From Cylindrospermopsis raciborskii Cr2010 (lineage in GTDB: Bacteria; Cyanobacteriota; Cyanobacteriia; Cyanobacteriales; Nostocaceae): DNA of 32,000 nt. Position 1 is the first letter of the stretch. Every line of letters begins with the position of its first letter. Position numbers and translations under genes: made by a program. The stretch covers positions 810,001-842,000 of the forward strand of contig NZ_CP065936.1 in the NCBI RefSeq assembly GCF_003367075.2, in the 5' to 3' direction. This document shows, in pieces, positions 562 to 22,313 of this stretch. The notes beneath the pieces are model-generated. The model was given only the letters and a program-made list of their open reading frames with translations, did not search any database and was not told the DNA's origin.

Positions 562-987
562 TTATAATATATTCAGGTTCCTGTCAGTAACATCCTTGAG
601 AGTGTAACAGCAATTAACTGGTATCTCCATACCTGTTTCAGCGATCGCATCCAAACGAGCTTTTTGGTAAATCCTATTTAAAAACTCGTCCGTCATATAT
701 TTTTTAAGACTCGGACTATCGATTAAATAATCCTCAATATTGCTCCTTTCTCTTTGAACAGTCACCAACCAACTTCGCGATCGCAATTCAGGTTGATAGT
801 CCCACTTGAGTAAGTGATGCAATATTAGTCGCATACTACTTAATAACCGATCTCGTTCTCGTTTCGACAAGTCTCTAATTTCTTCCACTAAGTTTATGAT
901 ATCTAGCTTATCAAAATGCCCGTTAGCAATTAGATCAGCCATCTTTTCTGACCAGAGAGCAAAATCTTGTTCATACAAGGTTGTCAT
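562..987 (-). CDS. DUF29 family protein
   Basis: 141 aa. 'LYEQDFALWSEKMADLI...FDKLDIINLVEEIRDLSKRERDRL.S....ILHHLLKW.YQP' is the typical DUF29 pattern. It is paralogous to 13545..14012 and to the fragment at 3688..3975. Confidence 0.85.
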   Translation of the reverse strand: MTTLYEQDFALWSEKMADLIANGHFDKLDIINLVEEIRDLSKRERDRLLSSMRLILHHLLKWDYQPELRSRSWLVTVQRERSNIEDYLIDSPSLKKYMTDEFLNRIYQKARLDAIAETGMEIPVNCCYTLKDVTDRNLNIL

Positions 988-3687: not shown

Positions 3688-3975
3688 ATGACAAGTCTTT
3701 ATGAAAAAGATTTCTGCCAATGGGTTGAGCAGACTACCCATTGTCCCGTTAATGGTGATTTTGCAGCAATTGATGTTGAGCATTTAGTTGAGGAATTAAA
3801 GGATCTGGGTAACTCCATTAAGCACTCTTTAGAGAGTAACTTAACTATCTTGCTAGCCCATCTACTAAAGCTGATGGTTCAGTCTGATGCACCCCCTAGT
3901 ATGAAGAACAATTGGTATAATTCCGTCAAAGAGTTGCAAAACTCCTACACAAGAATCCTTGAGAATTATTATTGA
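3688..3975 (+). pseudogene. DUF29 family gene, 3'-truncated (95 aa versus about 140-155 aa in the paralogues)
   Basis: 'LYEKDFCQWVEQT...IDVEHLVEELKDLGNS.KHSLESNLTILLAHLLKL' aligns with the DUF29 protein at 13545..14012. It ends early, where it overlaps the convergent TetR gene end by 7 nt. Confidence 0.6.
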
Positions 3976-4595
3976 ATTGTGGATTCCTTCACCAAAACTC
4001 CATTTAAGAATATATCTGCTAAACCTTCGGCCATTTGTTGCATTTCCTGGGGAGATGCATTTGGTTCAATTAGAGTGTGATCAGAAAAACCTGCGATCGC
4101 GAACATTCCTAAAAATACTTTAGCAACCAATTTAGCATCCATTTGGCGATAGATACCCCTATCCATGGCGGTTTGGAAAAATGCTTCTGCAACACTGGTC
4201 ATTTTATCAATCACCTCAGTTTGGATGCGATTCTGCAAATCTGGATGAAACTGCACCTCCATGAAACAAACTCGCATCAAATCAACATTCTTTTGCATGT
4301 TCCACATTCTGCGACGCATAACCTGAGCTATGGCTTTATAACTACCCATTTCACTCAATTCTGTCAGTAGGTCCGTGAGAATTTCTACCCAACCATTGGT
4401 TGCTACCTCTACCAGAATTGCCTTTTTATTGGCAAAATGACGAAAGAGTGTACCCTCAGCAACTCCTGCAGCGTGGGCTAAATCACGGGTAGTAGTGCTA
4501 TCAAATCCCCTGGAAGCAAATAAACGCAATGCTGCTATAACAATGCGGCTACGGGTTTGAGCTTCTGAAGGGGAGGAATAATGAAAAACTGGCAT
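3969..4595 (-). CDS. TetR/AcrR family transcriptional regulator
   Basis: HTH region 'IVIAALRLFASRGFDSTTTRDLAHAAGVAEGTLFRHFANKKAIL'. I chose the start at ATG 4595 (MPVFHY...); the ORF extends to 4640. Divergent from the M16 peptidase pair. Confidence 0.85.
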   Translation of the reverse strand: MPVFHYSSPSEAQTRSRIVIAALRLFASRGFDSTTTRDLAHAAGVAEGTLFRHFANKKAILVEVATNGWVEILTDLLTELSEMGSYKAIAQVMRRRMWNMQKNVDLMRVCFMEVQFHPDLQNRIQTEVIDKMTSVAEAFFQTAMDRGIYRQMDAKLVAKVFLGMFAIAGFSDHTLIEPNASPQEMQQMAEGLADIFLNGVLVKESTIQ

Positions 4596-4748
4596 AGTAG
4601 TTATTCGGTGTGTGTTAGGGAACACGAATTTTATCTGCATTGTCTAACATGAAAGTTAGGAAGTACGGAAAGCTTAATAGAAGATTAATGCTTTGTTTGC
4701 TATCTGACCGGAATTTTAAAGAATTGTAAATTTAGTTGGATTTTTGCT

Positions 4749-6296
4749 ATGACCCATTGGATTTTTACTTGTATGAGGCGTTTTCTGGTAATAACCCTAG
4801 CATTTTTCTTATTTTGTGGTAATTTTCCCATTCAAACAGCGATCGCCCTACAAGGTAATCAAAGTTCGATTAAGCCCTATTTAGACCGAGTTGTTAAGCA
4901 ACTAACAGAGTTCACTTTAGATAATGGTTTAAAGTTTATTGTCTTGGAAAGACATCAAGCACCCGTGGTTTCTTTTCTGACTTATGCAAATGTTGGGGGG
5001 ATAGATGAACCAGATGGACAAACAGGAGTAGCTCATTTTTTGGAACACTTAGCTTTTAAGGGAACTAAGCGTATTGGTACAACAAACTACAAAGAGGAGA
5101 AGCCCTTATTAGATAAATTAGAGCAATTAGATAGTCAAATTAGAGCTGCCAAGAGTGAAAATAGAACGGAAGAGCTAGAAAAGCTAAAAAAAGAGTTCAA
5201 AACCGTAGAAGCTCAAGCTGGGAAATTGGTGAAACAAAATGAAATGGGTCAAATAGTTGAACAAGCTGGAGGTGTGGGTTTAAATGCTAATACTTCTAGT
5301 GAAGCAACCCGTTACTTTTATAGTTTTCCCGCCAATAAATTGGAGCTGTGGATGTCTCTGGAATCAGAAAGATTTTTAGAACCGGTATTCCGAGAATTTT
5401 ATAAAGAAAGGGATGTGATTTTAGAAGAAAGACGAATGCGGGTAGAAAATTCTCCCGTAGGGTTAATGGTTGAAAAATTCACCGATGTTGCTTTTAAAGT
5501 TCACCCTTACCGGAGACCTGTTATTGGTTATGATGAAGATATTCGTAACCTTTCTCCAGCTAATGTGAGGGAGTTTTTTAACAAGTATTATGTTCCCAGT
5601 AATTTAACCATTGCGGTGGTTGGTGATGTTAACCCTAATCAGGTTAAAAGATTGGCCAAAATTTATTTTGGTAGATATCCAGCTAAACCGAAAGCACAAG
5701 CTAAAATTAACCCCGAACCTAAACAAACCAGCACCAGAGAAATTACCGTAGAACTACCCTCACAACCTTGGTACTTGGAGGGCTATCATCGTCCTAGTAT
5801 CACTGACCCCGATAACGCTGTTTACGATATTATCAGCAGTTTACTAAGTAATGGTAGGACTTCACGACTGTATAAATCTTTGATTGAAACCCAAAGAGTG
5901 GCTTTGGTGGCGGAAGGGATTAGTGGTTTTCCAGGAGACAAGTATCCTAATTTAATGTTATTTTATGCTCTGACAGCACCAGGTCATACAGTAGATAAAT
6001 TGGCGATCGCCCTAGGTCAGGAAATTACCAAATTGCAAACCCAGCTCGTATCTGAGAAAGAATTAGAGCGAGTCAAAACACAAGCTAGAGCAGGTTTACT
6101 AAGGAGTTTAGATTCCAATATGGGTATGGCACAGCAACTATTGGAATATGAAGTGAAAACAGGTTCTTGGCGGAATTTATTCAAGCAATTGGATGACATT
6201 ACAAAGGTTACCCCTGCGGATATTCAAAGAGTAGCACAATCAACCTTCACAGCGGAAAATCGCACAATTGGTAAATTACTTTCCCAAAAATCATAG
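4749..6296 (+). CDS. M16 (pitrilysin) family zinc peptidase, catalytic-type subunit, with N-terminal signal/TM
   Basis: 515 aa. Inverted zinc motif HxxEH is present ('GVAHFLEHLAFKGT'). N-terminal hydrophobic segment 'FLVITLAFFLFCG'. Confidence 0.85.
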   Translation: MTHWIFTCMRRFLVITLAFFLFCGNFPIQTAIALQGNQSSIKPYLDRVVKQLTEFTLDNGLKFIVLERHQAPVVSFLTYANVGGIDEPDGQTGVAHFLEHLAFKGTKRIGTTNYKEEKPLLDKLEQLDSQIRAAKSENRTEELEKLKKEFKTVEAQAGKLVKQNEMGQIVEQAGGVGLNANTSSEATRYFYSFPANKLELWMSLESERFLEPVFREFYKERDVILEERRMRVENSPVGLMVEKFTDVAFKVHPYRRPVIGYDEDIRNLSPANVREFFNKYYVPSNLTIAVVGDVNPNQVKRLAKIYFGRYPAKPKAQAKINPEPKQTSTREITVELPSQPWYLEGYHRPSITDPDNAVYDIISSLLSNGRTSRLYKSLIETQRVALVAEGISGFPGDKYPNLMLFYALTAPGHTVDKLAIALGQEITKLQTQLVSEKELERVKTQARAGLLRSLDSNMGMAQQLLEYEVKTGSWRNLFKQLDDITKVTPADIQRVAQSTFTAENRTIGKLLSQKS

Positions 6297-6319
6297 GTAG
6301 AGAGGAAGAAAGCAGAACC

Positions 6320-7837
6320 ATGGTCAGGAGTAAAAAATTGAAATTTTCACGTAATATTTTCCCCAAGTTGGGTAGAACTTGGCAATTATTTTTCGCGGTA
6401 GTAATTGCCTTAGTATTGACCTTGAATTTCTCAAGGGTAGCAACAGCAGCAGCGAAGCATTATACCGACTTACAATTCAATTCTTTACCGGGAATTAAAC
6501 TGCCAAAGTATGAGCGATTCCAATTAAACAACGGTTTAGTCGTCTATTTAATGGAGGATCATGAATTACCCTTAGTTAGTGGAACAACTCTAATTAAGAC
6601 TGGTAGTCGTTGGGAAGCAGGAGACAAAGTTGGTTTGGGTGACGTTGTAGGTTCACTAATGCGCATTGGAGGAACTAACAAACACTCCCCGGATGAACTA
6701 AATGAAATTTTGGAGCAAAGAGCAGCATCCGTAGAAACTGATATTAATGAAAGCACTGGAACTGCGAGTTTTGAAAGTTTAACTGAAGATTTAGAAACTG
6801 TGTTCGGGTTGTTTGCAGAAGTCTTACGAGAACCAGCTTTTGCTCCAGAAAAGTTGGAATTGATTAAAACTCAAATTAAGGGAAGTATTGCCCGTCGCAA
6901 TGATGATTCTGACAATATTGCCAGTCGGGAGTTTCGCAAATTAATCTATGGTCAAAATAGTCCCTATGCACGCACTATAGAATATGCAACTCTGGATAAA
7001 ATCCAGCGAGAAGATGTGATTAACTTCTATCGGAAATATTTCCATCCCAATAACATAATCCTGGGAATTGTGGGGGATTTTAACCCGAAAAAAATGCGCT
7101 CTCTGATTCAGACTAAACTGGGTGATTGGCAACCTAATCTCAACATTGCTAAAACTCAATTACCACCAGTGCAGCAAGCTAATTTAAGTGGGTTATTCTT
7201 TGTCAATCAACCACAACTGACACAGAGCAGCATTTTGATGGGACATTTGGGGGGAAAATTCAATAGTCCAGATTATGCAGCATTAGATGTGATGAATGGT
7301 GTGCTAAATGGGTTTGGAGGAAGACTATTTAATGAAGTGCGATCGCGCCAAGGTTTAGCCTACTCTGTATATGGTTTATGGAATCCCCGTTTTGATTATC
7401 CGGGTGTGTTTATTGCTGGTGGACAAACTCGTTCTGATGCTACCGTACAGTTTATAAAATCCATTCAATTAGAGATTGAGCGCATTCAAAAGCAACCAGT
7501 AACAGCGAAAGAATTAAGGTATGCTAAGGAGTCCACCCTAAATTCTTTTGTATTCAATTTTCAGGATCCAGGTCAAACCCTGTCACGGTTAATGCGTTAT
7601 GAATATTATGGTTATCCTGCTGACTTTCTGTTTCGCTATCAAAAAGCGGTGACAAAAACCACAGCTGCAGATGTGCAAAGAGTGGCTCAGAAATATCTCA
7701 AACCAGAGAATTTAGTTACTTTAGTCGTAGGAAATCAAAGTGCCATTCAACCACCGTTAACCCAGTTAGCAAGTAAAATTACACCAATAGATATCACCAT
7801 TCCCGGATCTCAAGACACAGGCTCAAAAATCAACTGA
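6320..7837 (+). CDS. M16 family peptidase-like protein lacking the HxxEH motif (non-catalytic-type partner)
   Basis: 505 aa, paralogous in layout to the upstream gene. The equivalent position reads 'GDVVGSLMRIGGTNKHS'. There is a 23-nt gap from the upstream gene, so an operon pair is likely. Confidence 0.8.
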   Translation: MVRSKKLKFSRNIFPKLGRTWQLFFAVVIALVLTLNFSRVATAAAKHYTDLQFNSLPGIKLPKYERFQLNNGLVVYLMEDHELPLVSGTTLIKTGSRWEAGDKVGLGDVVGSLMRIGGTNKHSPDELNEILEQRAASVETDINESTGTASFESLTEDLETVFGLFAEVLREPAFAPEKLELIKTQIKGSIARRNDDSDNIASREFRKLIYGQNSPYARTIEYATLDKIQREDVINFYRKYFHPNNIILGIVGDFNPKKMRSLIQTKLGDWQPNLNIAKTQLPPVQQANLSGLFFVNQPQLTQSSILMGHLGGKFNSPDYAALDVMNGVLNGFGGRLFNEVRSRQGLAYSVYGLWNPRFDYPGVFIAGGQTRSDATVQFIKSIQLEIERIQKQPVTAKELRYAKESTLNSFVFNFQDPGQTLSRLMRYEYYGYPADFLFRYQKAVTKTTAADVQRVAQKYLKPENLVTLVVGNQSAIQPPLTQLASKITPIDITIPGSQDTGSKIN

Positions 7838-8073: not shown

Positions 8074-8310
8074 ATGGACATAAAAATCAGTGATCTATAC
8101 CCTAATGGTGATGGCGACCTTTTGCAAGAAGTTACTCCTGGCGAAATGGTTAATATCCAAGGAGGTGTAAGACGAAGAAGGAGAAATTCCAATTCGGTTG
8201 AGAGTGGTGATATTTCCCAAATTTTAGGACGTGTCAACGACAACCTAGAAAGATGGAGAGTGGAGATTGATGACACACTAGATCAATTGAGAGATTCAGT
8301 CACCTTCTAA
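8074..8310 (+). CDS. Small peptide (78 aa) with a double-glycine type leader ('GEMVNIQGG') and a highly charged core beginning VRRRRRNSNS
   Basis: SD-like GAGGTGA at 8060-8066, 7 nt before the ATG. The leader 'MDIKISDL...DLLQEVTPGEMVNIQGG' fits the bacteriocin-type GG leader pattern (L..L....E(L/M)..I.GG). Confidence 0.55.
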   Translation: MDIKISDLYPNGDGDLLQEVTPGEMVNIQGGVRRRRRNSNSVESGDISQILGRVNDNLERWRVEIDDTLDQLRDSVTF

Positions 8311-8555
8311 CCTTTGAGTTAAGTTTTTACTAATTCTTATTATTCCTCCCTTGGTCAAGGGGGGATTTATTATATATTCAGGTAGCTGTTTTTAAAAACA
8401 GAAGGACATTAAATCATGACTAATGTCCAATCAACACAGTTCAAACCCTTGATTTTTTAAATTTTCTCCCATAAAAATAGGAGTATGGGTTGAGCAAACG
8501 TCAAACGCTCCCATCCCATATTCACCAATAAGAACAAGTATTCTAGGAGGAAATT

Positions 8556-8786
8556 ATGGCAAGTATTAAACTGGATCAGTTACAAACTACTGGTTCTGAA
8601 CTATTTCAAGATTCTGAAAGTTTTCTCAATGATATGAGTGATATCAACTCTATTTCTGTTCATGGAGGATTCGGATCCAATGTGAGTGACATGTCCATAT
8701 TCACCAAATTAGCAGAAGCATTTGTCAATACCTACGGTATTGGTCATATTGCCTATTTGGCTAAGTCCTACAGCAGTGGAGTATAA
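8556..8786 (+). CDS. GG-leader precursor-like peptide, tandem paralogue 1 (76 aa; leader to ...SISVHGG, 38-aa Cys-free core)
   Basis: RBS AGGAGGAAATT immediately before the ATG. The 38-aa leader 'MASIKLDQLQTTGSELFQDSESFLNDMSDINSISVHGG' is near-identical in paralogues 2 and 3. Core: FGSNVSDMSIFTKLAEAFVNTYGIGHIAYLAKSYSSGV. Confidence 0.75.
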   Translation: MASIKLDQLQTTGSELFQDSESFLNDMSDINSISVHGGFGSNVSDMSIFTKLAEAFVNTYGIGHIAYLAKSYSSGV

Positions 8787-8849
8787 AACTAAAACACTGT
8801 TGATTTAGGGAATGTTTATCACTAGCAATCAGTCTTTGAGGAGGAAATT

Positions 8850-9086
8850 ATGGCAAGTATCAAATTGGGTCAATTGCAAACCACTGGTTCTGAACTATTT
8901 CAAGATTCCGAAAGTTTTCTCAATGAAATGAGCGATGTCAATTCTATCTCTGTTTATGGTGGTGGGTCTGATGTTAGTGACATGTACACTCTCACTAAAT
9001 TAGGAGAAGCATTTGTAAATACCTACGGTATTGGTCATATCGCCTATTTAGCTAAGTCTTATAGTGATCATGATTATTATTGGTAA
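8850..9086 (+). CDS. GG-leader precursor-like peptide, tandem paralogue 2 (78 aa; C-terminal tail DHDYYW)
   Basis: RBS GAGGAGGAAATT immediately before the ATG. The leader differs from paralogue 1 at 4 residues. Core: GSDVSDMYTLTKLGEAFVNTYGIGHIAYLAKSYSDHDYYW. Confidence 0.75.
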   Translation: MASIKLGQLQTTGSELFQDSESFLNEMSDVNSISVYGGGSDVSDMYTLTKLGEAFVNTYGIGHIAYLAKSYSDHDYYW

Positions 9087-9163
9087 GAAAATTACCAGAT
9101 CATTTCCTGGTCACTTCTGGTTCACTCATACTAAGTTAATAAAAAATCCTTGAGGAGGAAATT

Positions 9164-9397
9164 ATGGCAAGTATCAAACTGGGTCAATTGCAAACCACCG
9201 GTTCTGAACTATTTCAAGATTCTGAAAGTTTTCTCAATGAAATGAGCGATGTCAATTCTATCTCTGTTTATGGTGGTGGATCTTATGATTTCAGTGATAT
9301 GTCCATATTCACCAAATTAGCAGAAGCATTTGTCAATACCTATGGTATTGGTCATATTGCCTACTTAGCCAAGTCCTACAGCGACTACGACTACTAA
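9164..9397 (+). CDS. GG-leader precursor-like peptide, tandem paralogue 3 (77 aa; C-terminal tail DYDY)
   Basis: RBS GAGGAGGAAATT immediately before the ATG. The leader is amino-acid-identical to paralogue 2. The core centre is nucleotide-identical to paralogue 1 over 43 nt. Confidence 0.75.
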   Translation: MASIKLGQLQTTGSELFQDSESFLNEMSDVNSISVYGGGSYDFSDMSIFTKLAEAFVNTYGIGHIAYLAKSYSDYDY

Positions 9398-9419
9398 TAC
9401 GCTGAAATAATTAGCCAGT

Positions 9420-9469
9420 TTGGCTCTCCTGGAATCAAAGGTAAATTATTAATACCACAGGAGAGCCAA
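9420..9469 (+). promoter_or_regulatory. Long-stem hairpin (12-bp perfect stem TTGGCTCTCCTG/CAGGAGAGCCAA, 26-nt loop) between the tandem peptide genes and the distal genes
   Basis: Read directly. It lies 23 nt after the stop of paralogue 3. It is followed by TAAAAAAGG rather than a U-tract, so it is not a canonical intrinsic terminator on the + strand. Confidence 0.35.
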
Positions 9470-9510
9470 TAAAAAAGGCTCTAGAATACCCTTAATACCT
9501 ATTAAGATCC

Positions 9511-9720
9511 ATGGCTAAAATTATGATCAATGATCTGGAGCCTATTAACTCAGAAACATTCATTAATGATCTGAATAATCAAAATTCTCAAGCTATTTTT
9601 GGTGGTGAAGATCCTTATTTTGATGGACTGATAAATTTTGGCATCAAAACTCTTGAGTTTATGGTTGTTATCACAGCTATTAATGCCATTTCTTTTCTAG
9701 TATATTCCTTTCAAGAATAA
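9511..9720 (+). CDS. Divergent GG-leader peptide (69 aa; leader ...NSQAIFGG, hydrophobic 37-aa Cys-free core)
   Basis: 'MAKIMINDLEPINSETFINDL....AIFGG' follows the same leader pattern as paralogues 1-3 (I.L..L...SE.F...). Core: EDPYFDGLINFGIKTLEFMVVITAINAISFLVYSFQE. The stop is 17 nt before the kinase-like gene. No obvious SD. Confidence 0.5.
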   Translation: MAKIMINDLEPINSETFINDLNNQNSQAIFGGEDPYFDGLINFGIKTLEFMVVITAINAISFLVYSFQE

Positions 9721-9737
9721 CATATCTCCTAAAAATT

Positions 9738-10901
9738 ATGCCATTTGTTTTAAGTTCTGAAAACGTTTTTTCTTACCTGATTTCTCAAAGAATTTGCACT
9801 CAAGAAGAGCAATCAGCAAGCAAGATTGATCTCAAATCTGCTAAAAATTTTAATCTATTACTTACTTTACCCGATAACCGTCAATTATTGGTGAAACAAG
9901 AACGTATTAATCGAGAGGGTAAAACCAGCGGTGAGTTTATAGATGAATGGCAAGTTCATAATTTTTTTCAGACATTTTCAGCAGTAAATCATCTTCGTTC
10001 ATCCCTATCAGAAGCAATACATTTTGATCAGGCAAATTCCATCCTTGTCTTCAACTATCTCAGAGAATATCGGGATATAGGTGAGTTTTATGCCCGAGAA
10101 AATTTATTTCCCATGACAATTGCTCGCTCCCTAGGGGAAATATTGGCATCAATTCATCAGTTGACTTTAGATCGTCCAGAATATGAAAATTTCTTTCAAA
10201 ATTCTCAGATCACCAGAAAACATAAAAATTCTCACGTACATGAGGGAATCCCTAGAATTACACCGGAACTATTTGGTCAACTGACTGCAGATGATTTAAA
10301 ATTCTTTTCCCTGTATCAACGTTATGACAATTTGGGGAAAGCAATTTCCCAATTGGGTCAATCCTATCATGCTTGTTGTTTGACCCATAATGACCTAAAA
10401 CTCAATAATATTCTCCTGTCTTTAAATTGGGAATCTACAATAAGTCAATCATCCGGTAATATCCGGGGGGAAAAAATAATTCGCCTCATTGACTGGGAGC
10501 GTGGTAATTGGGGAGATCCAGCAAGTGATTTAGGTTCCATAATTGCCAGTTATTTACAAATTTGGCTATATAGTATGGTAACCAGTCGAACTATACCAAT
10601 TGAAGAATCACTACGATTAGCAGCTATTCCTTTGCACTTGATACAACCTTCTATAGCAGAACTAGTAGGTGGTTATTTAACTACCTTTCCAGAGATTTTA
10701 GAGCGTCGACCTAATTTTTTGCAATTAGTTGTACAGTTTACTGGCTTTTCATTAATTACCTCCATTCAAGCTAAACTGCAACACGAAAAGACCTTTGGTA
10801 ATTCTGGTATTGCTATTCTTCAGTTAGCCAAAACTCTCTTGTGTCGTCCCCAAACATCCCTCAGCACAATCTTTGGGGAGGATATTAGATTTGAGATCTA
10901 A
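9738..10901 (+). CDS. Protein-kinase-like / APH-fold phosphotransferase (387 aa)
   Basis: Candidate beta3 Lys in 'QLLVKQ' (K53). Catalytic loop 'HNDLKLNN' (aa 217-224, nt 10386-10409) fits HxDxxxxN, and the D-L-K-x-x-N form is typical of Ser/Thr kinases. Metal-binding 'LIDWERG' (D252, nt 10491-10493) resembles the IDxE of APH/MTR-kinase/CotS-type enzymes. Confidence 0.8.
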   Translation: MPFVLSSENVFSYLISQRICTQEEQSASKIDLKSAKNFNLLLTLPDNRQLLVKQERINREGKTSGEFIDEWQVHNFFQTFSAVNHLRSSLSEAIHFDQANSILVFNYLREYRDIGEFYARENLFPMTIARSLGEILASIHQLTLDRPEYENFFQNSQITRKHKNSHVHEGIPRITPELFGQLTADDLKFFSLYQRYDNLGKAISQLGQSYHACCLTHNDLKLNNILLSLNWESTISQSSGNIRGEKIIRLIDWERGNWGDPASDLGSIIASYLQIWLYSMVTSRTIPIEESLRLAAIPLHLIQPSIAELVGGYLTTFPEILERRPNFLQLVVQFTGFSLITSIQAKLQHEKTFGNSGIAILQLAKTLLCRPQTSLSTIFGEDIRFEI

Positions 10902-10962
10902 TTAAGGCGTCAAAAGGTCAGTCAAGGGGATTTTGTTGTTTTTATCTATAGGTGACAAAACT

Positions 10963-12060
10963 ATGCAATTATTAAATTCTCGCAAATTTCAGCTGACACA
11001 ACTCCCTGAGCAGTTGCAAGATTCTCTGCAGGATATGGTTAGTCACATTCAAATTGAGTCTTATTACTCTATTAAGCATACACGCTACAAGCATTCAATT
11101 CTACCAGATTCTGTAACTTCTCAGTTTGAAAGGCTACCTTTAGAGATACAGCAGCAACATTTAAAATTACAATTGCGTAACTTTATATATAACAACTATT
11201 ATAACGTTAACATAAAGAATAAATCAAGTACAGATGAGAACATAGACAGCAGTAAATTGAACAAACAGCTTGAAAACAATAGTTTGTTTGGGGTAGATCT
11301 AGAATTTTATGATCGTCTACACAATGGGAACAAAGGTAAAGGTTACTGGAGTCATAATTGGGAGATTGTCAAGGAAGAGACAGATGGTACCTTAGCAGTC
11401 TATAAGAACGGCTTAACACTGCACATTGACCCCAATTTACATTTATCACCAACAACTCAAGGTCTCAGTGCTGGAAAGACTATATCCGTTAAAATGCCGA
11501 AGAATTTGGTACAAAACGGCTTTTATATGGCCGTAGCTAATGCGGGAACTCAAAACAATCAGGAGATTACCCGCATCTACTTTAATATAGCAGCTGAAGG
11601 AGCAGCAACAGTGATGGAAAGTGTAACGGAATATCTTAATGATCTTGACATTTCATTCTCTTTTAAAGCATTATATAATCCCGGTGATTATCAACGTTAC
11701 GATTCAGCTGTTCTCTATTTTAATAAAAGTCAACATCAGATAGTCTGGCCTGTTTTGCAAAAAGTCTATGCAGAAAATGAATTATACTTTCAGCAACAGG
11801 TTCCCATGTTCACTAAAATACTAGCACCTGGGTTAGGCTGTGCGGAAGAACCAGAGCAAAAATTTGGCGACCAAGAGAGCTTCGGTACTCACCGCTGTCA
11901 AATTATTGCTAATGGATTAATTGAAGCCTGGCTAGCGGGTGATCATACTCCAGAGTACCGCATAAGTGCTATCTTTAAACAGTTTGCATTACAAAACATC
12001 CAGTTACAACATCCTTATCTCAATCCCCATTCTCAGGATATTTATACTCCCTTTTTTTAA
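10963..12060 (+). CDS. HopA1-effector-like protein; putative phospho-Ser/Thr lyase partner of the upstream kinase
   Basis: 366 aa from ATG 10963 (SD-like AGGTGA at 10950-10955); the ORF opens at TTG 10933. The central block 'GFYMAVANAG....ITRIYFNIAAEGAATVMESVTEYLNDLDISFSFKALYNPGDYQRYDSAVLYFNK' matches my recollection of the HopA1 family core (R.Y.N...F.FK....Y.R.D..V.Y). I could not run an HMM search. Confidence 0.5.
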   Translation: MQLLNSRKFQLTQLPEQLQDSLQDMVSHIQIESYYSIKHTRYKHSILPDSVTSQFERLPLEIQQQHLKLQLRNFIYNNYYNVNIKNKSSTDENIDSSKLNKQLENNSLFGVDLEFYDRLHNGNKGKGYWSHNWEIVKEETDGTLAVYKNGLTLHIDPNLHLSPTTQGLSAGKTISVKMPKNLVQNGFYMAVANAGTQNNQEITRIYFNIAAEGAATVMESVTEYLNDLDISFSFKALYNPGDYQRYDSAVLYFNKSQHQIVWPVLQKVYAENELYFQQQVPMFTKILAPGLGCAEEPEQKFGDQESFGTHRCQIIANGLIEAWLAGDHTPEYRISAIFKQFALQNIQLQHPYLNPHSQDIYTPFF

Positions 12061-12204
12061 AAAGGGTTTAATTTCAACTGTGAGGATTATTTCCTCACTA
12101 TCCCAAAACATCACTACCAGTCTCATGTCCAATTTTATGGGGTGTTTAACACGAAACTTTAGTAACTGACAAAATAACTATTTAATGACTGATAGAGGTG
12201 ATAA

Positions 12205-12462
12205 ATGATTCCAGAGAATTTTGAACAAAAGCAAGAGTCAGAAAAGATAGATATAACATTCCAGCATATACAAATTCAGCAAATTATTCATGCCATTATT
12301 GCAGGCAAATATGCTTGGGCCTGTATTTTATTTATTTACTTTTCAGGAAGGGATCCCCTCCACTATATACCTCAAGAAATTTACACTAAGTTAGTGAGAG
12401 ATAATTTTCCACCAGTATCAACTAATCGGGAGTTGACAACTGACAAAAAATTGAGTAGTTAG
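12205..12462 (+). CDS. HetP-family-like small protein (85 aa)
   Basis: SD-like AGAGGTGA sits 3 nt before the ATG. 'IIHAIIAGKYAWACILFIYFSGRDPLHYIPQEIYTKLVRDN' resembles the conserved N-terminal core of HetP and its short paralogues in Anabaena PCC 7120, which I recall as A.LAGKYSWAC.L..RFAGYNP.HYIP.R.YNRL. Confidence 0.55.
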   Translation: MIPENFEQKQESEKIDITFQHIQIQQIIHAIIAGKYAWACILFIYFSGRDPLHYIPQEIYTKLVRDNFPPVSTNRELTTDKKLSS

Positions 12463-12518: not shown

Positions 12519-12886
12519 AAGCTGAACAAAAACGTCTATCTCAAGAACATCAACAGGAATATGAACAACGCCAAAGAAAACATGAAGAAGAGATGGACCA
12601 ATTCCGTATATTTATGGAAGAAACCAGGAAGATGGTGGCTGAAACTAATAAAAATATGGGATCCATCACTAGCAGATGGGGTGAGTTTGTAGAAAACTTA
12701 GTTAGACCTGCTGCGGCGCGATTATTTAAGGAGCAGGGTATTAATGTACACTATACCTCTCTTCAGGTAAAAGCTCATGATTATAAAGGTTCCATAGAAA
12801 TTGATATTTGGGCAGAAAATGATGGTGAAATTGTAGCCATTGAAGTTAAGTCTCACTTACCTCTGGTATCCCAAACTAGACACTAA
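12519..12886 (+). pseudogene. Fragment 1 of a DUF3782-like (coiled-coil plus PD-(D/E)XK-like) gene, truncated at both ends
   Basis: Homology to fragment 3 begins at about 12519, just after HIP1 12499-12506 ('AEQKRLSQEHQQEYEQRQRKHEEEMDQFRIFMEET'). It continues into '...GEFVENLVRPAAARLFKEQGINVHY...IEIDIWAENDGEIVAIEVKSHL' and stops early at 12886, 8 nt before HIP1 12895-12902. Confidence 0.6.
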
Positions 12887-12965
12887 ATGGACAGGCGATC
12901 GCATGTCTATTTGGTAAACAGGATAAGTTATAATAGAAGAAATTTTTACCTAATATTATAGAATT

Positions 12966-13133
12966 ATTAGCAATGAAACTATTACAATCGCAGATATTTT
13001 TGCTTTATTCAAAGAGAGTGAAAGACAAAGAGAAGCGGAACAAAAGCGTCTATCTCAAGAAATTGAACGGGAACGTGAAGAACGTCAACGGGAAAATGAG
13101 GCCCGTCAGCGAAAACATAAGGTTTATTTTTAA
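12966..13133 (+). pseudogene. Fragment 2 of the same gene family: N-terminal part with the start codon mutated (ATG to ATT)
   Basis: In frame from 12966: 'ISNETITIADIFALFKESERQREAEQKRLSQEIERE...RQRKHKVYF*'. This aligns with 'MSNETITLADIFALFKESERQREAEQ..KRLSQE' of fragment 3. The upstream sequence 'GGATAAGTTA(T/G)AATAGAAGAA' is also duplicated. Confidence 0.6.
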
Positions 13134-13301
13134 TTCGTCCAGCAGGAGACTCGGTAGCTATTGACATGAAGGAGGATTTTCAAGCCAAGGTGTGGTAAGT
13201 CTATAAATAGATATGCGATCGCATTTATCGTGTCTATACTACTAGTTGGTAACGTAGGATAAGTTAGAATAGAAGAAGTTTTTACTGAAGGTTATAGACT
13301 T

Positions 13302-13532
13302 ATGAGCAACGAAACAATTACGCTCGCAGATATTTTTGCCTTATTCAAAGAAAGCGAAAGGCAAAGAGAAGCTGAACAAGCTGAACAAAAACGTCTATCT
13401 CAAGAACGTCAACAGGAATATGAACAGCGTCAACGGGAATACGAGGAACGCCAAAGAAAACATGAAGAAGATATGGAGCAATTCCGTATATCTATGGAAG
13501 AAACAGCGATCGCCTTAATGTCTAGTGATTAG
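13302..13532 (+). pseudogene. Fragment 3 of the same gene family: intact start, coiled-coil N-terminus only (76 aa)
   Basis: 'MSNETITLADIFALFKESERQREAEQAEQKRLSQERQQEYEQRQREYEERQRKHEEDMEQFRISMEET'. It then diverges at HIP1 13508-13515 and stops. The nuclease-like domain seen in fragment 1 is absent. Confidence 0.6.
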
Positions 13533-13544
13533 GACTTGGATAAT

Positions 13545-14012
13545 ATGTATAATAAACTGTATGATAGCGATTTAGAATTATGGATCGAACAAACAATTCA
13601 ACAATTGCAAAATCGTGAGTTTGTATCTTTGGATGTTGAGCATTTAATTCAGGAGTTAGTAGATTTGGGTAAGTCCCAGAAGAATACACTTAAAAGTAAT
13701 CTTAAGATATTATTAGCTCACTTACTCAAACTAAAAATTCAGCATGATGCACCTGATATGATGAAAACAAGTTGGTACGGTTCAGTTGTAGAACATCGTC
13801 AACGGGTACTGGATAATTTAGCAGATACTCCATCTCTAAAAGGTTTTCTCGTGGAAGCAGTGGAAAAAGCCTATCCTGATGGACGAAAATTGGCAATTAA
13901 GGAGAGCAAATTTGCTAAATTGGGAGTCCGTCTACCAGAAGAGAGTGAGTATCCCATAATTTGTCCTTTTCAAATAGAGGAAATTCTGGATGAGGACTTT
14001 TATGGAGACTAA
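13545..14012 (+). CDS. DUF29 family protein
   Basis: 155 aa from ATG 13545 ('MYNKLYDSDLELWIEQT...LDVEHLIQELVDLGKSQKNTLKSNLKILLAHLLKL'). The ORF opens at TTG 13536. Confidence 0.85.
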   Translation: MYNKLYDSDLELWIEQTIQQLQNREFVSLDVEHLIQELVDLGKSQKNTLKSNLKILLAHLLKLKIQHDAPDMMKTSWYGSVVEHRQRVLDNLADTPSLKGFLVEAVEKAYPDGRKLAIKESKFAKLGVRLPEESEYPIICPFQIEEILDEDFYGD

Positions 14013-20071: not shown

Positions 20072-20249
20072 GGAGGATAGATTTAAAAACTATTTACAGG
20101 AACATTATAGAGCTTTAACAACTTGTTAACAGATAGACCTGATTTTTGGTTTATGATATTGTATAACTAGAAAGAAGTAAGTAGGGGGCACAATTGTTTG
20201 TAAGATAGATTCTGTTGATTTTTATGCTGTGAAATTTAATTTCAACGTC

Positions 20250-22313
20250 ATGATATGTTGTTTAAATCCCGATTGTCAAAATCCTCAAAATCCCCATGGT
20301 AGCAAGTTTTGTCAAAGTTGTGACACTCCTTTAGTACCACTGTTAAGAAATCGTTTTCGTATTATTCGTGTGCTTTCAGATGAAGGAGGATTTGGCAGAA
20401 CATATCTAGCAGAAGATACAGATAAATTAAATGATAATTGTGTGGTCAAACAATTAGCACCTAAGTTTCAGGGTACTTGGGCACAAAAAAAAGCAATGGA
20501 GTTATTCAGTCAAGAAGCAAAGAGACTGCAAGAATTAGGAGAGCATCCACAAATTCCCACCTTATTGGCTTATTTTGAGCAAGATAAATGTTTATATTTA
20601 GTACAGCAATTTATAGATGGCAATAACCTATTACAGGAGTTACAATTAAGAAAGCACTATAAAGACAGTGATATTCAATCTTTACTACTGGATTTATTGC
20701 CTATTCTTAAATTTCTTCATAGTCGGGGAATAATTCATCGAGATATCAAACCAGAGAATATTATCCGACGTAAAAGGGATGGAAGATTAATCTTAATTGA
20801 CTTTGGTTCTGCCAAACAATTAACAGTTGCAGTTCAAAAAAAATATGGTACTTCTATTGGATCCCATGGTTATTCTGCTATAGAGCAAATTAGAGATGGC
20901 AAAGCCTATCCAGCTAGTGATTTATTTAGCTTGGGTGCTACTTGTTTTCATCTCTTAACTGGTCTATCTCCCTTTCAATTGTGGATAGAACATGGTTATA
21001 GTTGGGTCAAGAATTGGCAAGATTGCCTTAACAATTCTAGGAGTGCTGAGCTAATTATTATTTTAGATAAGCTATTACAACTAGATCTGAAAAATCGCTA
21101 TCAATCTGCTGATGAAGTTATAAAAGACCTTAGTAAAAAGAATGTTTATGGTTCAAAAAAATCTGGCATATACCTTAAAAAGGGTAAACATGAAAAACAT
21201 AAACATACTATTTTGCGAAATATATTTTTGATTTTGGTAACAATTTCGGTTGTGGGGGGATTGGGATATAGGAACTTAGGTCAAATGCAAACGGCAATTT
21301 TCTCTCAATTTAATCCTTTATTAATACCAAGTAATAAATCTTCTACCAGTCCCGAGTATGGGCAAATATCTGGGAGAACTTCCTCTATTAGAACTAACAA
21401 AGTTAGTTTACTCAAAACCATAACACAAGTAGATAAATCCCTAGCAGTGGTGGCTATTACTCCAGATGGTAATACTATTGTCAGTGCGGGTCACAAAGAA
21501 ATTAAATTATGGAATAGCAAAACGGGCAAACAAATTATATCCCTACCAGGACATACACAAAATATCAACGCTCTTGCCATTAGTCCAGATGGAAATAACC
21601 TAGTGAGTGCGGGAGATGATAAAACGATTAAAGTTTGGAATTTACAAACAAAAAAACTTACTTTTAATCTAGTTGGTCATCAAGACTCAATTCAAGCACT
21701 AGCTATTAGTCAAGATAGCAAAATCCTAGTTAGTGCGGGAGATGATAAAACAATTAAAGTTTGGAGTCTATTAACAGGAAAGTTTTTAAAAACTCTCCTA
21801 GGCCATAATTATTGGGTTAGATCTTTAGCTCTTAGTCCCGATGGGTTCACTCTAGCAAGTGGAAGTTTTGATAAAACTATTAAAATATGGAATATTAATC
21901 AAACCAGTGGGCAAAAACCAACTACACTATTAGATACTACTTCCCAAACAGTCACATCTTTAGCTTTTAGTCCGGACACTAGTACACTTGTCAGTACCAG
22001 TCGCGATCGCCAAATTAAGTTTTGGGATATTAAGAATAAGGAGATAATTTTTGCCAGTAAAAAACAAAATGTTACATCTGTGATTTTCAGTCCCGATGGT
22101 AAAACCCTGATTAGCAAAGCCAAAAGTTGCCCAGATTGTTCTGAGAAAATTTCCTCTGTGATTAAATTATGGGATGTAAGCACAAAGGAAGAAATTTACG
22201 CTCTACCAGGAAACACCAAAATTGTTACATCCTTAGTTTTAAGTGCTGATGGTAAAACTTTAGTGGGTGGAACAGAAGATAATAAGATTAATATTTGGGA
22301 GATTTCTCCCTAA
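20250..22313 (+). CDS. Ser/Thr protein kinase with N-terminal zinc-ribbon, central TM segment and C-terminal WD40 repeats
   Basis: 'CLNPDCQNPQNPHGSKFCQSCDTPL', 'HRDIKPENII', 'IDFGSAK', TM segment 'IFLILVTISVVGGLG', and repeated 'GH...I.ALAISPDG..LVSAGDDKTIKVWNL' units. I chose the start at ATG 20250. Confidence 0.85.
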   Translation: MICCLNPDCQNPQNPHGSKFCQSCDTPLVPLLRNRFRIIRVLSDEGGFGRTYLAEDTDKLNDNCVVKQLAPKFQGTWAQKKAMELFSQEAKRLQELGEHPQIPTLLAYFEQDKCLYLVQQFIDGNNLLQELQLRKHYKDSDIQSLLLDLLPILKFLHSRGIIHRDIKPENIIRRKRDGRLILIDFGSAKQLTVAVQKKYGTSIGSHGYSAIEQIRDGKAYPASDLFSLGATCFHLLTGLSPFQLWIEHGYSWVKNWQDCLNNSRSAELIIILDKLLQLDLKNRYQSADEVIKDLSKKNVYGSKKSGIYLKKGKHEKHKHTILRNIFLILVTISVVGGLGYRNLGQMQTAIFSQFNPLLIPSNKSSTSPEYGQISGRTSSIRTNKVSLLKTITQVDKSLAVVAITPDGNTIVSAGHKEIKLWNSKTGKQIISLPGHTQNINALAISPDGNNLVSAGDDKTIKVWNLQTKKLTFNLVGHQDSIQALAISQDSKILVSAGDDKTIKVWSLLTGKFLKTLLGHNYWVRSLALSPDGFTLASGSFDKTIKIWNINQTSGQKPTTLLDTTSQTVTSLAFSPDTSTLVSTSRDRQIKFWDIKNKEIIFASKKQNVTSVIFSPDGKTLISKAKSCPDCSEKISSVIKLWDVSTKEEIYALPGNTKIVTSLVLSADGKTLVGGTEDNKINIWEISP

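Follow-up and report, generated by a model that had tools for sequence, protein, structure and literature searches.

A conserved Family 1A cluster of Cylindrospermopsis raciborskii that probably makes exported, dehydrated linear peptides

A 32-kb stretch of the Cylindrospermopsis raciborskii genome, hereafter the window, carries a cluster of GG-leader peptide, kinase and HopA1-family genes that is real and conserved across the sampled Nostocales loci. The locus is the C. raciborskii copy of Family 1A; relative to the Group II cyanobacterial bacteriocin cluster, its form is reduced. We consider it probable that this conserved cluster makes exported, dehydrated linear peptides by means of a LanK/LanY-like dehydratase. 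The earlier note on this DNA had described a block of eight same-strand genes, and all eight ORFs were found on the + strand exactly at the coordinates it gave. Its GG motifs and spacings were also reproduced on re-reading, with gaps of 17 nt between pepC and the kinase gene, 61 nt between the kinase and HopA1-like genes, and 144 nt between the HopA1-like and HetP-like genes. The features of the locus are as follows.

3969-4640, - strand: TetR-family regulator (Pfam TetR_N, E 7.7e-17), divergent from the M16 pair
4749-6296, + strand: M16 peptidase subunit, M16a (Pfam Peptidase_M16 and M16_C; dN/dS 0.12)
6320-7837, + strand: second M16 subunit (Pfam; no HxxEH; signal/anchor-like N-terminus; dN/dS 0.09)
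8074-8310, + strand: pepA, 78-aa GG-leader ORF of a separate family (dN/dS 0.32)
8344-8365, + strand: putative terminator-like hairpin (promoter/terminator scan; consensus match only)
8556-8786, + strand: pepB1, 76 aa, ...SVHGG; leader MASIKLDQLQTTGSELFQDSESFLNDMSDINSISVHGG, core FGSNVSDMSIFTKLAEAFVNTYGIGHIAYLAKSYSSGV
8850-9086, + strand: pepB2, 78 aa, ...SVYGG; core end ...YLAKSYSDHDYYW; dN/dS 0.12
9164-9397, + strand: pepB3, 77 aa, ...SVYGG; core end ...YLAKSYSDYDY; dN/dS 0.16
9511-9720, + strand: pepC, 69 aa, ...AIFGG; core EDPYFDGLINFGIKTLEFMVVITAINAISFLVYSFQE; stop 17 nt ahead of the kinase start
9738-10901, + strand: LanK-like APH-fold Ser/Thr kinase, 387 aa; HNDLKLNN, IDWE
10963-12060, + strand: LanY-like HopA1-family phospho-Ser/Thr lyase, 365 aa (Pfam HopA1, E 2.3e-67)
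12205-12462, + strand: HetP-family small protein, 85 aa, no GG motif

Two details of the gene calls required revision. The HopA1-like ORF is present, but its product has 365 aa rather than the 366 claimed, the latter being the number of codons with the stop; the ORF is extendable to a TTG at 10933, and the 365-aa length of the homologues indicates the ATG at 10963 as the start. The picture of a single compact block holds for gene order and strand but not for pepA, which belongs to another family and is set apart by the hairpin and a 245-nt gap. After the NIQGG that closes the pepA leader come VRRRRR and an acidic, helical tail in which a Trp is conserved. In 49 related loci the corresponding position is taken by homologues, whose consensus is I.ISDL.P......ELT..EMK.V.GG ahead of the poly-Arg patch. 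The hairpin 3' of pepA has a 9-bp stem with 5 GC pairs and a T-rich tail, and pepA is probably its own transcription unit.

The comparison set comprised the top 80 related-species loci, almost all from Nostocales. The kinase gene immediately precedes HopA1 in each of these loci (80/80), and tandem GG-leader peptides (1-10 per locus) lie upstream in every one, such that the co-conservation anticipated for peptide, kinase and HopA1 genes was borne out by the neighborhood comparison. The locus had been put forward as undescribed, a claim that does not stand: the cluster was already catalogued by Eyles et al. 2021 and the wider architecture by Wang et al. 2011. The former defined a cyanobacteria-only Family 1A of 570 GG-leader peptides in 183 clusters, for which a dehydratase reading was already proposed, and its dataset lists C. 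raciborskii peptides almost identical to pepB1 and pepB2 (PMC8153245), the near-identical pepB1 peptide being a supplementary entry for strain CENA303. In the same work 96% of 1,340 HopA1 proteins were paired with a phosphotransferase, typically near short peptides (PMC8153245). The Group II bacteriocin clusters of Wang et al. 2011 combine M16 peptidases, HetP-like genes, multiple GG precursors and long C39 exporters (PMC3140520). The literature searched yielded no experimentally characterized product of a Family 1A cluster.

The precursors form one family of 313 homologues across 81 loci, in which the leader and cleavage site are strongly conserved (G in 299/313; G or A in 308/312). By clustering, pepC groups with the pepB leader superfamily, and its core is more hydrophobic than the B-type cores. 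The ribosome-binding site GAGGAGGAAATT-ATG is strong and identical across the three pepB copies. This shared site, the size of the conserved family and the peptide dN/dS values of 0.11-0.32 argue that the array did not arise by chance. More broadly, dN/dS is 0.09-0.32 for every locus gene in comparison with Raphidiopsis brookii D9; the locus is under purifying selection, which is among the points new here. Ser/Thr residues occur in every family core (median 8), and K-S-[F/Y]-[S/T/N] is found in 215/270 peptides when loci without a reductase gene are counted. An independent published dataset contains AKSFS in 70 peptides and AKSYS in 45. In most cores the C-terminal motif A-K-S-[F/Y]-S is conserved, which is also new here. 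Conservation of such strength is unusual among RiPP core peptides, and the block at the C-terminus could serve enzyme recognition instead of being the region that is modified. In related loci the peptide without KS[FY]S is the kinase-nearest one in 49/55 cases, a further new observation that points to a distinct peptide type adjoining the kinase.

What chemistry would the two enzymes perform? The 387-aa protein is indeed a kinase homologue, of APH type by Pfam (E 1.5e-8, exceeding the gathering score) and most LxmK-like by NCBIfam and fold search. It scores 79.5 bits against the NCBIfam LxmK model over residues 37-377, well short of the equivalog cutoff of 315. Its best PDB folds are the LxmK chains 9dk3_A, 9dk2_A and 9dk1_A (E 9e-7 to 7e-6), with a poor structure model (pLDDT 60.6, TM 0.37-0.42 to LxmK) of low confidence across the catalytic lobe. 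Residues K53, E70, H217, D219, K221, N224 and D252 do not vary across sets of 32 and 36 homologues, and the kinase is predicted to phosphorylate Ser/Thr of the peptide cores. For the lyase, profile search together with structure prediction and fold search upheld the HopA1-family assignment. By phmmer it matches 9dk1_B (LxmY; E 8e-8) with R/K/R/Y aligned, and its AlphaFold model (pLDDT 74.8) returns the same chain as top Foldseek match, over the full length (E 2.4e-16, TM 0.64/0.72); the next matches are to the HopA1 effector, to lyase domains of LanKC and to SpvC/OspF. R204, K235, R245 and Y252 are conserved without exception in 38 homologues and have the spacing of the experimentally critical CaoY residues R187/K219/R229/Y236. 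The resemblance to the split dehydratase of class V lanthipeptides and thioamitides is therefore sustained, with LxmY the best solved-structure match and the CaoY-type R/K/R/Y invariant, and the reaction predicted for the lyase is beta-elimination of phosphate, which would yield Dha/Dhb. CaoK/CaoY and LxmK/LxmY are homologous pairs with biochemistry, and the characterized homologues all modify adjacent precursor peptides (PMC9486802, PMC12141560).

We hypothesize that three B-type precursors and one C-type precursor are expressed from a peptide-kinase-lyase operon, and that kinase and lyase, given their homology and catalytic residues, would assemble into a heterodimeric dehydratase like LxmKY/CaoKY. 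The conserved leader (SELFQDSESFLN..) would guide the kinase to core Ser/Thr, after which the lyase would eliminate phosphate to leave Dha/Dhb; the two Ser of A-K-S-[F/Y]-S are the likeliest fixed targets. None of the five window peptide cores contains Cys, and the function scan, which covered window ORFs from 100 aa upwards, turned up no cyclase, decarboxylase, YcaO/TfuA or ABC exporter, in agreement with the earlier reading. Because Cys and a cyclase are both missing, no lanthionine would form, and the product would be a linear, partly amphipathic peptide of ~38-40 residues with dehydro-amino acids. Linear dehydro- or phosphopeptides, as the earlier note suggested, are plausible products, and for the exported peptides both a bacteriocin and a signal role were considered.

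A C39-peptidase ABC exporter would cut the leader after GG during export. That no exporter was recognized holds within the window, where the scan of ORFs of at least 100 aa returned no rotamase, HlyD, PCAT or leader peptidase, but most relatives encode one adjacent to the cluster: among the 68 with enough downstream sequence, 53 have a cNMP-C39-ABC exporter and HlyD just downstream and 58 have a PpiC rotamase. This module (Pfam cNMP_binding, Peptidase_C39, ABC, HlyD_3 and Rotamase) lies convergent to the cluster; it is lost from the C. raciborskii locus and is likewise missing from that of R. brookii D9. For this reason, a PCAT encoded elsewhere would have to act in trans. Strain CS-505 has five listed C39-transporter clusters (Wang et al. 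2011, PMC3140520). The absence of hetC from CS-505 has also been reported.

The 85-aa protein is HetP-like as proposed (NCBIfam HetP_family, 81.4 bits versus a cutoff of 45) and matches a protein of C. raciborskii at 100% identity. The gap ahead of its gene contains the hairpin GTGAGGA-TTATT-TCCTCAC, and the gene probably has its own promoter. Its membership of the block holds only in part, since it adjoins HopA1 here but an orthologous + strand gene lies directly 3' of HopA1 in only 27/79 related loci. We regard it as a recurrent neighbor, with nothing here to place it in the peptide chemistry.

Could the dehydrated peptides instead be developmental or cell-to-cell signals in heterocyst formers, and not antimicrobials? 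This idea is compatible with the same chemistry and is the best of the alternatives, though we think it improbable; HetC-type (cNMP-C39-ABC) export into the shared periplasm would feed a HetP-family commitment circuit. The near restriction of the top 80 loci to Nostocales, with lyase identity of 52-69% and flanking synteny kept, suggests old vertical inheritance. Antibiotic clusters typically show patchy spread. The cores are conserved and not diversifying, HetP-family genes occur in 41/81 loci at two distinct positions, the cluster exporter shares its domain architecture with HetC, and R. brookii D9, non-heterocystous and described as non-N2-fixing, lacks the HetP-like gene at its locus. However, the same strain keeps peptides, kinase and lyase under purifying selection, HopA1/phosphotransferase pairs also occur in non-heterocystous Moorea and Microcystis, per the Eyles methods (PMC8153245), the HopA1-adjacent gene is a minority arrangement, and no connection was found between the locus and the studied PCC 7120 paralogue alr3234. 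The association itself comes from gene neighborhood in related genomes, which are non-independent samples.

Less likely again is that the products are essentially unmodified class II-type pore-forming bacteriocins, possibly two-component (B + C), exported through their GG leaders while the kinase and lyase serve immunity, regulation or another protein. GG leaders, ~40-residue Gly/Ala/aromatic-rich cores that are amphipathic or hydrophobic, multiple paralogues in a fixed B...B-C order and the bacteriocin classification by Wang 2011 (PMC3140520) all fit such peptides. Yet the kinase-lyase pair accompanies them in all 80 loci, in a position fitting RiPP tailoring enzymes and here starting only 17 nt past the pepC stop; the pairing of HopA1 proteins with phosphotransferases near short peptides, the adjacent substrates of all characterized homologues and the lack of an evident immunity-like membrane protein within the block also argue against it.

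We give slightly less weight to an end product other than a simple linear dehydropeptide, either a stable phosphopeptide or a Dha-derived form such as a Lys-Dha (lysinoalanine-type) crosslink through the conserved Lys or reduction to D-amino acids. A Lys adjoins the conserved Ser of A-K-S-F-S in 232/296 peptides, and a second conserved Lys lies further upstream in 248/311. In addition, an aldo/keto reductase directly follows the lyase in 14 related loci with very different Ser/Thr-rich cores, which hints that dehydro residues are intermediates there. However, the invariant lyase catalytic residues make a phosphopeptide end point unlikely, the window holds no reductase or crosslinking enzyme, and motif inspection is the sole basis of the proposal. 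It is very unlikely that the locus is a non-functional remnant left by loss of the exporter module, as the missing module and the degenerate DUF3782 gene fragments at the right-hand boundary, where R. brookii D9 similarity stops, might suggest, because all ORFs, catalytic residues and GG sites are intact, the proteins are conserved at 99-100% from strain to strain of C. raciborskii, the low dN/dS was obtained against a strain itself without the module, and the C39 transporters listed for CS-505 could act in trans.

Under the preferred dehydropeptide reading, the M16 heterodimer encoded upstream, if exported, might trim the peptides outside the cytoplasm, as its synteny hints. M16a retains the HxxEH zinc motif (HFLEH at residue 96) intact, and its N-terminal segment is hydrophobic and signal-like, making it a candidate extracytoplasmic processing protease; the second subunit, separated from it by a 23-nt gap, is probably the non-catalytic partner in an M16B-type heterodimer. 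The pair lies upstream in 36/58 loci having enough upstream sequence and does not adjoin the cluster in Dolichospermum/Aphanizomenon loci, and it could be a housekeeping neighbor kept by synteny. The earlier note had missed this pair as well as the downstream exporter module of the relatives. The divergent TetR-family gene, syntenic in 36/80 related loci, may act as a local regulator and is peripheral to the system.

The eight plus-strand ORFs of the locus appear in the ORF listing at exactly the coordinates assigned to them in the earlier note, and direct reading of the sequence agrees with its double-glycine motifs and its gaps of 17, 61 and 144 nt. The HopA1-like protein also lies where it had been placed, but its length of 366 aa is corrected to 365 aa from the ATG at 10963, as in its homologues. 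The features of the gene block are as follows.

4749-7837: M16 peptidase pair, M16a and M16b (Pfam)
8074-8310, plus strand: pepA, GG-leader peptide gene (ORF listing)
8344-8365: terminator-like hairpin in the 245-nt gap 3' of pepA
8556-8786, plus strand: pepB1, B-type GG-leader peptide gene (ORF listing)
8850-9086, plus strand: pepB2, B-type GG-leader peptide gene (ORF listing)
9164-9397, plus strand: pepB3, B-type GG-leader peptide gene (ORF listing)
9511-9720, plus strand: pepC, C-type GG-leader peptide gene (ORF listing)
9738-10901, plus strand: kinase, 387 aa (ORF listing, Pfam APH)
From the ATG at 10963, plus strand: HopA1-like lyase, 365 aa (start fits homologue length)
12205-12462, plus strand: HetP-like protein, 85 aa (NCBIfam HetP)

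The genes pepB1, pepB2 and pepB3 are tandem duplicates that have one strong ribosome-binding site in common, GAGGAGGAAATT-ATG. No Pfam or NCBIfam model matches any of the five peptides at E values up to 1, and an Rfam scan of the window returned only two unrelated tRNAs. A perfect 7-bp hairpin, GTGAGGA-TTATT-TCCTCAC, is found at 12081-12099 inside the 144-nt gap between the lyase and HetP-like genes; it has no T-run on its 3' side, and a processing site, an operator or a weak terminator are candidate roles for it.

What chemistry would the two enzymes of this block perform? The kinase scores above the gathering score of Pfam APH and matches the NCBIfam LxmK model (class V lanthipeptide kinase) along its full length at 79.5 bits, a score far short of the equivalog cutoff of 315. 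Residues K53, E70, H217, D219, K221, N224 and D252 are invariant in all kinase homologues aligned, and the protein is predicted to be a LanK-type enzyme, namely an APH-fold Ser/Thr kinase with intact catalytic residues. A search of its profile against PDB sequences gave weak APH and PsiK matches only and missed LxmK. Three LxmK chains are the top fold matches of its AlphaFold model, which is taken as weak, supporting evidence only because that model is poor, with a pLDDT of 60.6 overall and below 50 across residues 186-258.

The lyase matches Pfam HopA1 with an E value of 2e-67 and aligns by sequence to LxmY, chain B of PDB 9dk1 (E 8e-8), with the R/K/R/Y set conserved; this PDB entry is the LxmK-LxmY lexapeptide dehydratase complex (PMC12141560). 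Mutagenesis of CaoY has revealed that a class V lyase needs Arg187, Lys219, Arg229 and the conserved Tyr236 (PMC9486802), and in the window lyase R204, K235, R245 and Y252 (365-aa numbering) are invariant in 38 homologues. Foldseek of the AlphaFold model (pLDDT 74.8) places LxmY (9dk1_B) as the top match over the full length (E 2.4e-16, TM 0.64/0.72), followed by the HopA1 effector, class III LanKC lyase domains and SpvC/OspF. Judged by alignment and predicted structure, the protein would be a LanY, a HopA1-fold lyase with the catalytic Arg/Lys/Arg/Tyr.

The best-supported reading of the locus is that a LanK/LanY-type split dehydratase acts on the adjacent GG-leader peptides and would convert Ser/Thr to Dha/Dhb. 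The analogy to a split dehydratase drawn in the earlier note holds, in that both enzymes are homologous to such pairs, their catalytic residues are kept and their genes are co-linear with those of the peptides. According to the proposed sequence of events, the kinase and lyase would form a complex that modifies these peptides at predicted Ser/Thr positions, a PCAT (an exporter of the cNMP-C39-ABC type seen in relatives) would cleave the leader and the M16 pair may trim the product.

A scan for the lyase in one genome per species recovered 284 relatives, and the best 80 of these 284 loci, almost all from Nostocales, were compared by clustering of ORFs and tblastn. The nearest relative among the matches is that of Raphidiopsis brookii D9, with 93% identity in the lyase; proteins of the window itself are 99-100% identical to those of Cylindrospermopsis raciborskii. 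In 80/80 related loci, the kinase gene immediately precedes that of the lyase, and a comparison of gene neighborhoods of the kind proposed in the earlier note found peptides, kinase and HopA1 together in all 80.

The pepB/pepC family comprises 313 peptides, with 1-10 per locus (median 4), and these are located upstream of the kinase-lyase pair in every related locus. Their leader consensus, derived over the 313 peptides, is MA.I.LSEL..G.SELFQDS..ESF..LN[ED]L[SN]D.D.I..., and the leader ends in GG in 251 peptides and in GA in 31 (n=313). The motif is conserved, and the leader would be cleaved after GG by the C39 peptidase domain of a PCAT during export. The cores are approximately 42 residues long, and every one contains Ser/Thr (median 8). 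Cys occurs in only 4/313 family cores and in 0/5 of the window cores, in line with the Cys-free cores described previously. Within the subfamily sampled here, mostly from Nostocales, most cores share the block K(248/311)..E(242/306)...[YF]AI.H....LA-K(232/296)-S(261/297)-[F/Y]-S(217/295), which stops a few residues short of the C-terminus. Independently, a published RiPPER dataset contains 70 AKSFS and 45 AKSYS peptides, and the conserved A-K-S-[F/Y]-S motif is the likely modification site.

A more hydrophobic core characterizes peptides that do not carry the KS[FY]S motif, such as pepC in the window, and these peptides are the copy nearest the kinase in 49/55 cases. For this reason, the conserved layout can be described as several B-type peptides, one C-type peptide, the kinase and the lyase. 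This fixed B...B-C order suggests a two-component product.

In most relatives, a convergent module is positioned just downstream of the lyase and encodes a PpiC-type rotamase, HlyD, an exporter and an HTH protein (Pfam), where the exporter is a 1016-aa cNMP-binding/C39-peptidase/ABC protein. Of the 68 relatives whose sequence extends 8 kb or more downstream, 53 encode the transporter, 53 encode HlyD and 58 encode the rotamase. No part of this module is encoded in the 32-kb window; there, the HetP-like gene comes next after the lyase, and beyond it are degenerate DUF3782 fragments, a DUF29 gene and unrelated genes. The earlier statement that the locus has no exporter is therefore accurate for the window but does not describe the system, given the exporter in 53/68 informative relatives. 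Its absence here is a lineage-specific loss or relocation. Similarity between the window and R. brookii D9 extends up to position 12070 and stops there.

A DUF3782-like gene is represented at window positions 12519-13532 by three degenerate, partial copies of its 5' region, accompanied by HIP1-like GCGATCGC sequences. They lie just downstream of the HetP-like gene, where relatives have the rotamase-HlyD-PCAT module 3' of HopA1, and the patch looks like a rearrangement scar. In R. brookii D9 (L001), the 3' end of HopA1 is duplicated, at L001:10969-11138 and L001:11894-12050.

Upstream, the M16 pair is present in 36/58 loci with enough upstream sequence, usually alongside a divergent TetR gene; it does not adjoin the cluster in Dolichospermum/Aphanizomenon loci. 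The HxxEH zinc motif is present in M16a and absent in M16b, and both proteins have hydrophobic N-terminal segments, a combination that, by sequence, corresponds to an exported heterodimer of the M16B type. M16 pairs occur in other RiPP pathways, such as those of subtilosin (AlbE/AlbF) and PQQ (PqqF/PqqG). Synteny is the sole basis for assigning the pair to the peptide system, in which it may trim the product.

One explanation for a cluster without its exporter is that the locus is a decaying remnant or pseudogene. This is rejected because all ORFs are intact and dN/dS is low. Measured against R. brookii D9, which likewise has no exporter module, it ranges over 0.11-0.32 in the peptides and 0.09-0.18 in the kinase, the lyase and the M16 pair. 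Wang et al. list five C39-transporter clusters in C. raciborskii CS-505 (PMC3140520), which makes export in trans plausible. The gene hetC is reported missing in C. raciborskii (PMC2821919). The idea of an anti-phage defence system was dropped because PADLOC gave no match for the kinase, lyase, HetP-like protein, pepB1 or pepA.

A second question is whether the locus belongs to a known class of RiPP cluster. The systems closest in enzymology are LxmK-LxmY (lexapeptide) and CaoK-CaoY (cacaoidin), in which an APH-fold kinase and a HopA1-fold lyase are likewise encoded side by side after precursor genes, with the same lyase R/K/R/Y set and with LxmY and LxmK as the best solved-structure matches. 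However, sequence identity to the window enzymes is only 16-18%, and the window differs from these systems in that it contains no LanX-type cyclase, LanD decarboxylase, methyltransferase or reductase, its cores have no Cys, its leaders end in GG for PCAT cleavage and its host is a cyanobacterium rather than an actinomycete. Unlike in class V lanthipeptides, no lanthionine or AviCys can form from such cores. The thioamitide enzymes TsaC/TsaD (TvaC/TvaD) also constitute a kinase and HopA1 pair that dehydrates Ser/Thr of a ribosomal peptide, and the closest database relative reported for TsaD is a Cylindrospermopsis HopA1 protein (97% coverage, 31% identity), whereas the YcaO/TfuA pair, HFCD decarboxylase and Cys-containing core of thioamitides have no counterpart in the window. 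Pfam searches of window ORFs of at least 100 aa detected no cyclase (LanX-type or kinase-fold) and no HFCD decarboxylase, nor were these found among conserved neighbors in the 80 loci, and YcaO/TfuA had no Pfam match in the window or among conserved neighbors; the earlier note had recognized no cyclase, decarboxylase or thioamide-forming enzyme by eye, and Pfam concurs. A lanthipeptide or thioamitide cluster is ruled out because each of the defining features, namely Cys-containing cores, a cyclase, a decarboxylase and YcaO/TfuA, was looked for and found absent.

LanKC/LanL and OspF/SpvC resemble the predicted window pair in phosphorylation followed by beta-elimination, and their lyase domains are weaker fold matches. 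They differ from it in that LanKC/LanL combine several domains, including a cyclase, in one enzyme, and in that OspF/SpvC are secreted effectors acting on host MAP kinases. Nostolanthin, a cryptic Nostoc lanthipeptide described in a 2026 preprint, derives from a class II LanM cluster and is unrelated.

The locus had been proposed as undescribed, and this part of the proposal does not stand: the feature is real and was annotated well, but the family and the peptides of this species were catalogued in 2021 and the wider architecture in 2011. Eyles et al. 2021 mined 1,340 HopA1 proteins, 96% of which were paired with a phosphotransferase, and defined a "Family 1A" of 570 GG-leader peptides in 183 clusters found in Cyanobacteria only; their supplementary dataset includes C. 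raciborskii CENA303 peptides near-identical to pepB1 and pepB2 (PMC8153245). Going by its sequence features, the window locus is a member of Family 1A, a cyanobacterial arrangement of several conserved-GG-leader peptides co-linear upstream of HopA1/phosphotransferase. The published description differs from ours in that Family 1A cores were considered highly variable with no conserved Ser/Thr/Cys, whereas here most share K..E...[YF]AI.H....LAKS[FY]S, and Eyles et al. 2021 do not discuss HetP, M16, the exporter context or the exporter loss in Cylindrospermopsis.

Wang, Fewer & Sivonen 2011 describe "Group II" cyanobacterial bacteriocin clusters with a long C39 exporter, HlyD, SurA, M16 peptidases, adjacent HetP-like genes and ~3.8 precursors each; in the text available, no dehydratase role is assigned to the kinase/HopA1 pair (PMC3140520). 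The window shares with these clusters the M16 peptidase genes, an adjoining HetP-like gene and several GG-type precursors, and relatives add the CAP_ED-C39 ABC transporter, HlyD and SurA-like rotamase; the window differs in having none of the defining transporter, HlyD and rotamase. No experimental characterization of Family 1A was found in the literature searched.

The HetP-like call in the earlier note is substantiated by the curated HetP N-terminal domain model, with a score of 81.4 bits against NCBIfam NF037966 (HetP family; cutoff 45) over residues 8-67. A word-indexed homology search with the 85-aa HetP-like query returned only three proteins, not enough to analyse the family, and local tblastn on the loci was used instead, which placed a HetP-like gene directly after the lyase in 27/79 loci. 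The hetC-hetP region of Anabaena/Nostoc PCC 7120 is similar in that a cNMP-C39-ABC exporter gene lies beside a HetP-family gene, and 20 related loci have a HetP-like gene 5' of the PCAT gene of the cluster. It differs in that no GG-leader gene was found near hetC, while the window has a HetP-like gene and no PCAT. A link was sought between the HetP-like gene and alr3234, a studied PCC 7120 paralogue located downstream of alr3233. BLAST of the sequence between these two genes and of the N-terminal 20 residues of Alr3234 (NsiR1 paper supplement) against the 80 loci matched heptamer repeats only and gave no connection to the PCC 7120 paralogues studied experimentally. The HetP-family link is a recurrent neighborhood association, noted already in earlier literature.

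The gene in those 20 related loci (e.g. L003, L010 and L058) is a second HetP-like gene. It maps to the minus strand, approximately +9.3 to +10.6 kb relative to where HopA1 starts, and precedes a gene with an HTH_32 domain and the gene for the cNMP-C39-ABC exporter, both also on the minus strand, in an arrangement that resembles hetC-hetP of PCC 7120. The locus of R. brookii D9, a strain described as non-N2-fixing, contains no HetP-like gene, yet purifying selection still acts on its peptides, kinase and lyase.

What biological role might such a locus have? A far-reaching hypothesis is that the B/C peptides represent a new RiPP class of linear, Cys-free peptides that are dehydrated at A-K-S-[F/Y]-S by LanK/LanY, are inherited vertically in heterocyst-formers, act as an exported intercellular or periplasmic signal rather than an antibiotic, and are substrates of a HetC-type exporter coupled to HetP-family commitment regulators. 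We consider this full combination improbable; if true, these peptides would be substrates of the GG-leader type that has long been looked for in connection with HetC-type exporters. Should the link to the HetP family and the HetC-like exporter prove functional, it would bear on heterocyst commitment signalling.

The family ranks among the largest groups of clusters that contain LanK/LanY, with relatives in 284 species genomes. It offers experimental handles in the A-K-S-[F/Y]-S motif, where modification is likely to occur, in the fixed B...B-C peptide order and in a naturally minimal cluster (peptides, kinase and lyase, no exporter) from a small-genome bloom-forming species.

Several further observations concern the surroundings of the locus. 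DUF29 genes lie at window 562-987 on the minus strand, 3 kb upstream of the TetR/M16 end of the locus, and at 13536-14012 on the plus strand, 1.1 kb downstream of the HetP-like gene; these and the DUF3782 fragments belong to small cyanobacterial gene families with no assigned function. A plus-strand gene at window 20229-22313 encodes a 694-aa protein with an N-terminal Ser/Thr protein kinase domain and C-terminal WD40 repeats and is unrelated to the peptide locus.

Homologues of pepA form a separate conserved GG-leader family in 49 related loci (e.g. L016:7402-7665), with a poly-Arg patch directly after the leader followed by a helical acidic tail with a conserved Trp, and their cores are unlike typical RiPP or bacteriocin cores. 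This family may correspond to the 'KIxDLxYLE..GG' precursors labelled HetP-type in Wang 2011. In 14 related loci (L048, L050, L052, L053, L063, L066, L071-L073, L075 and L077-L080), an aldo/keto reductase (PF00248) is encoded directly 3' of the lyase, e.g. at L080:11098-12138. The GG-leader peptides of these 14 loci have wholly different Ser/Thr/Asn/Val-rich cores, e.g. FTVVGVSLSAQTVVTVNGNSVNANTVGNVNTVG, with the KS[FY]S motif in 0/43, and there the reductase may act on dehydro-amino acids, perhaps to give D-residues.
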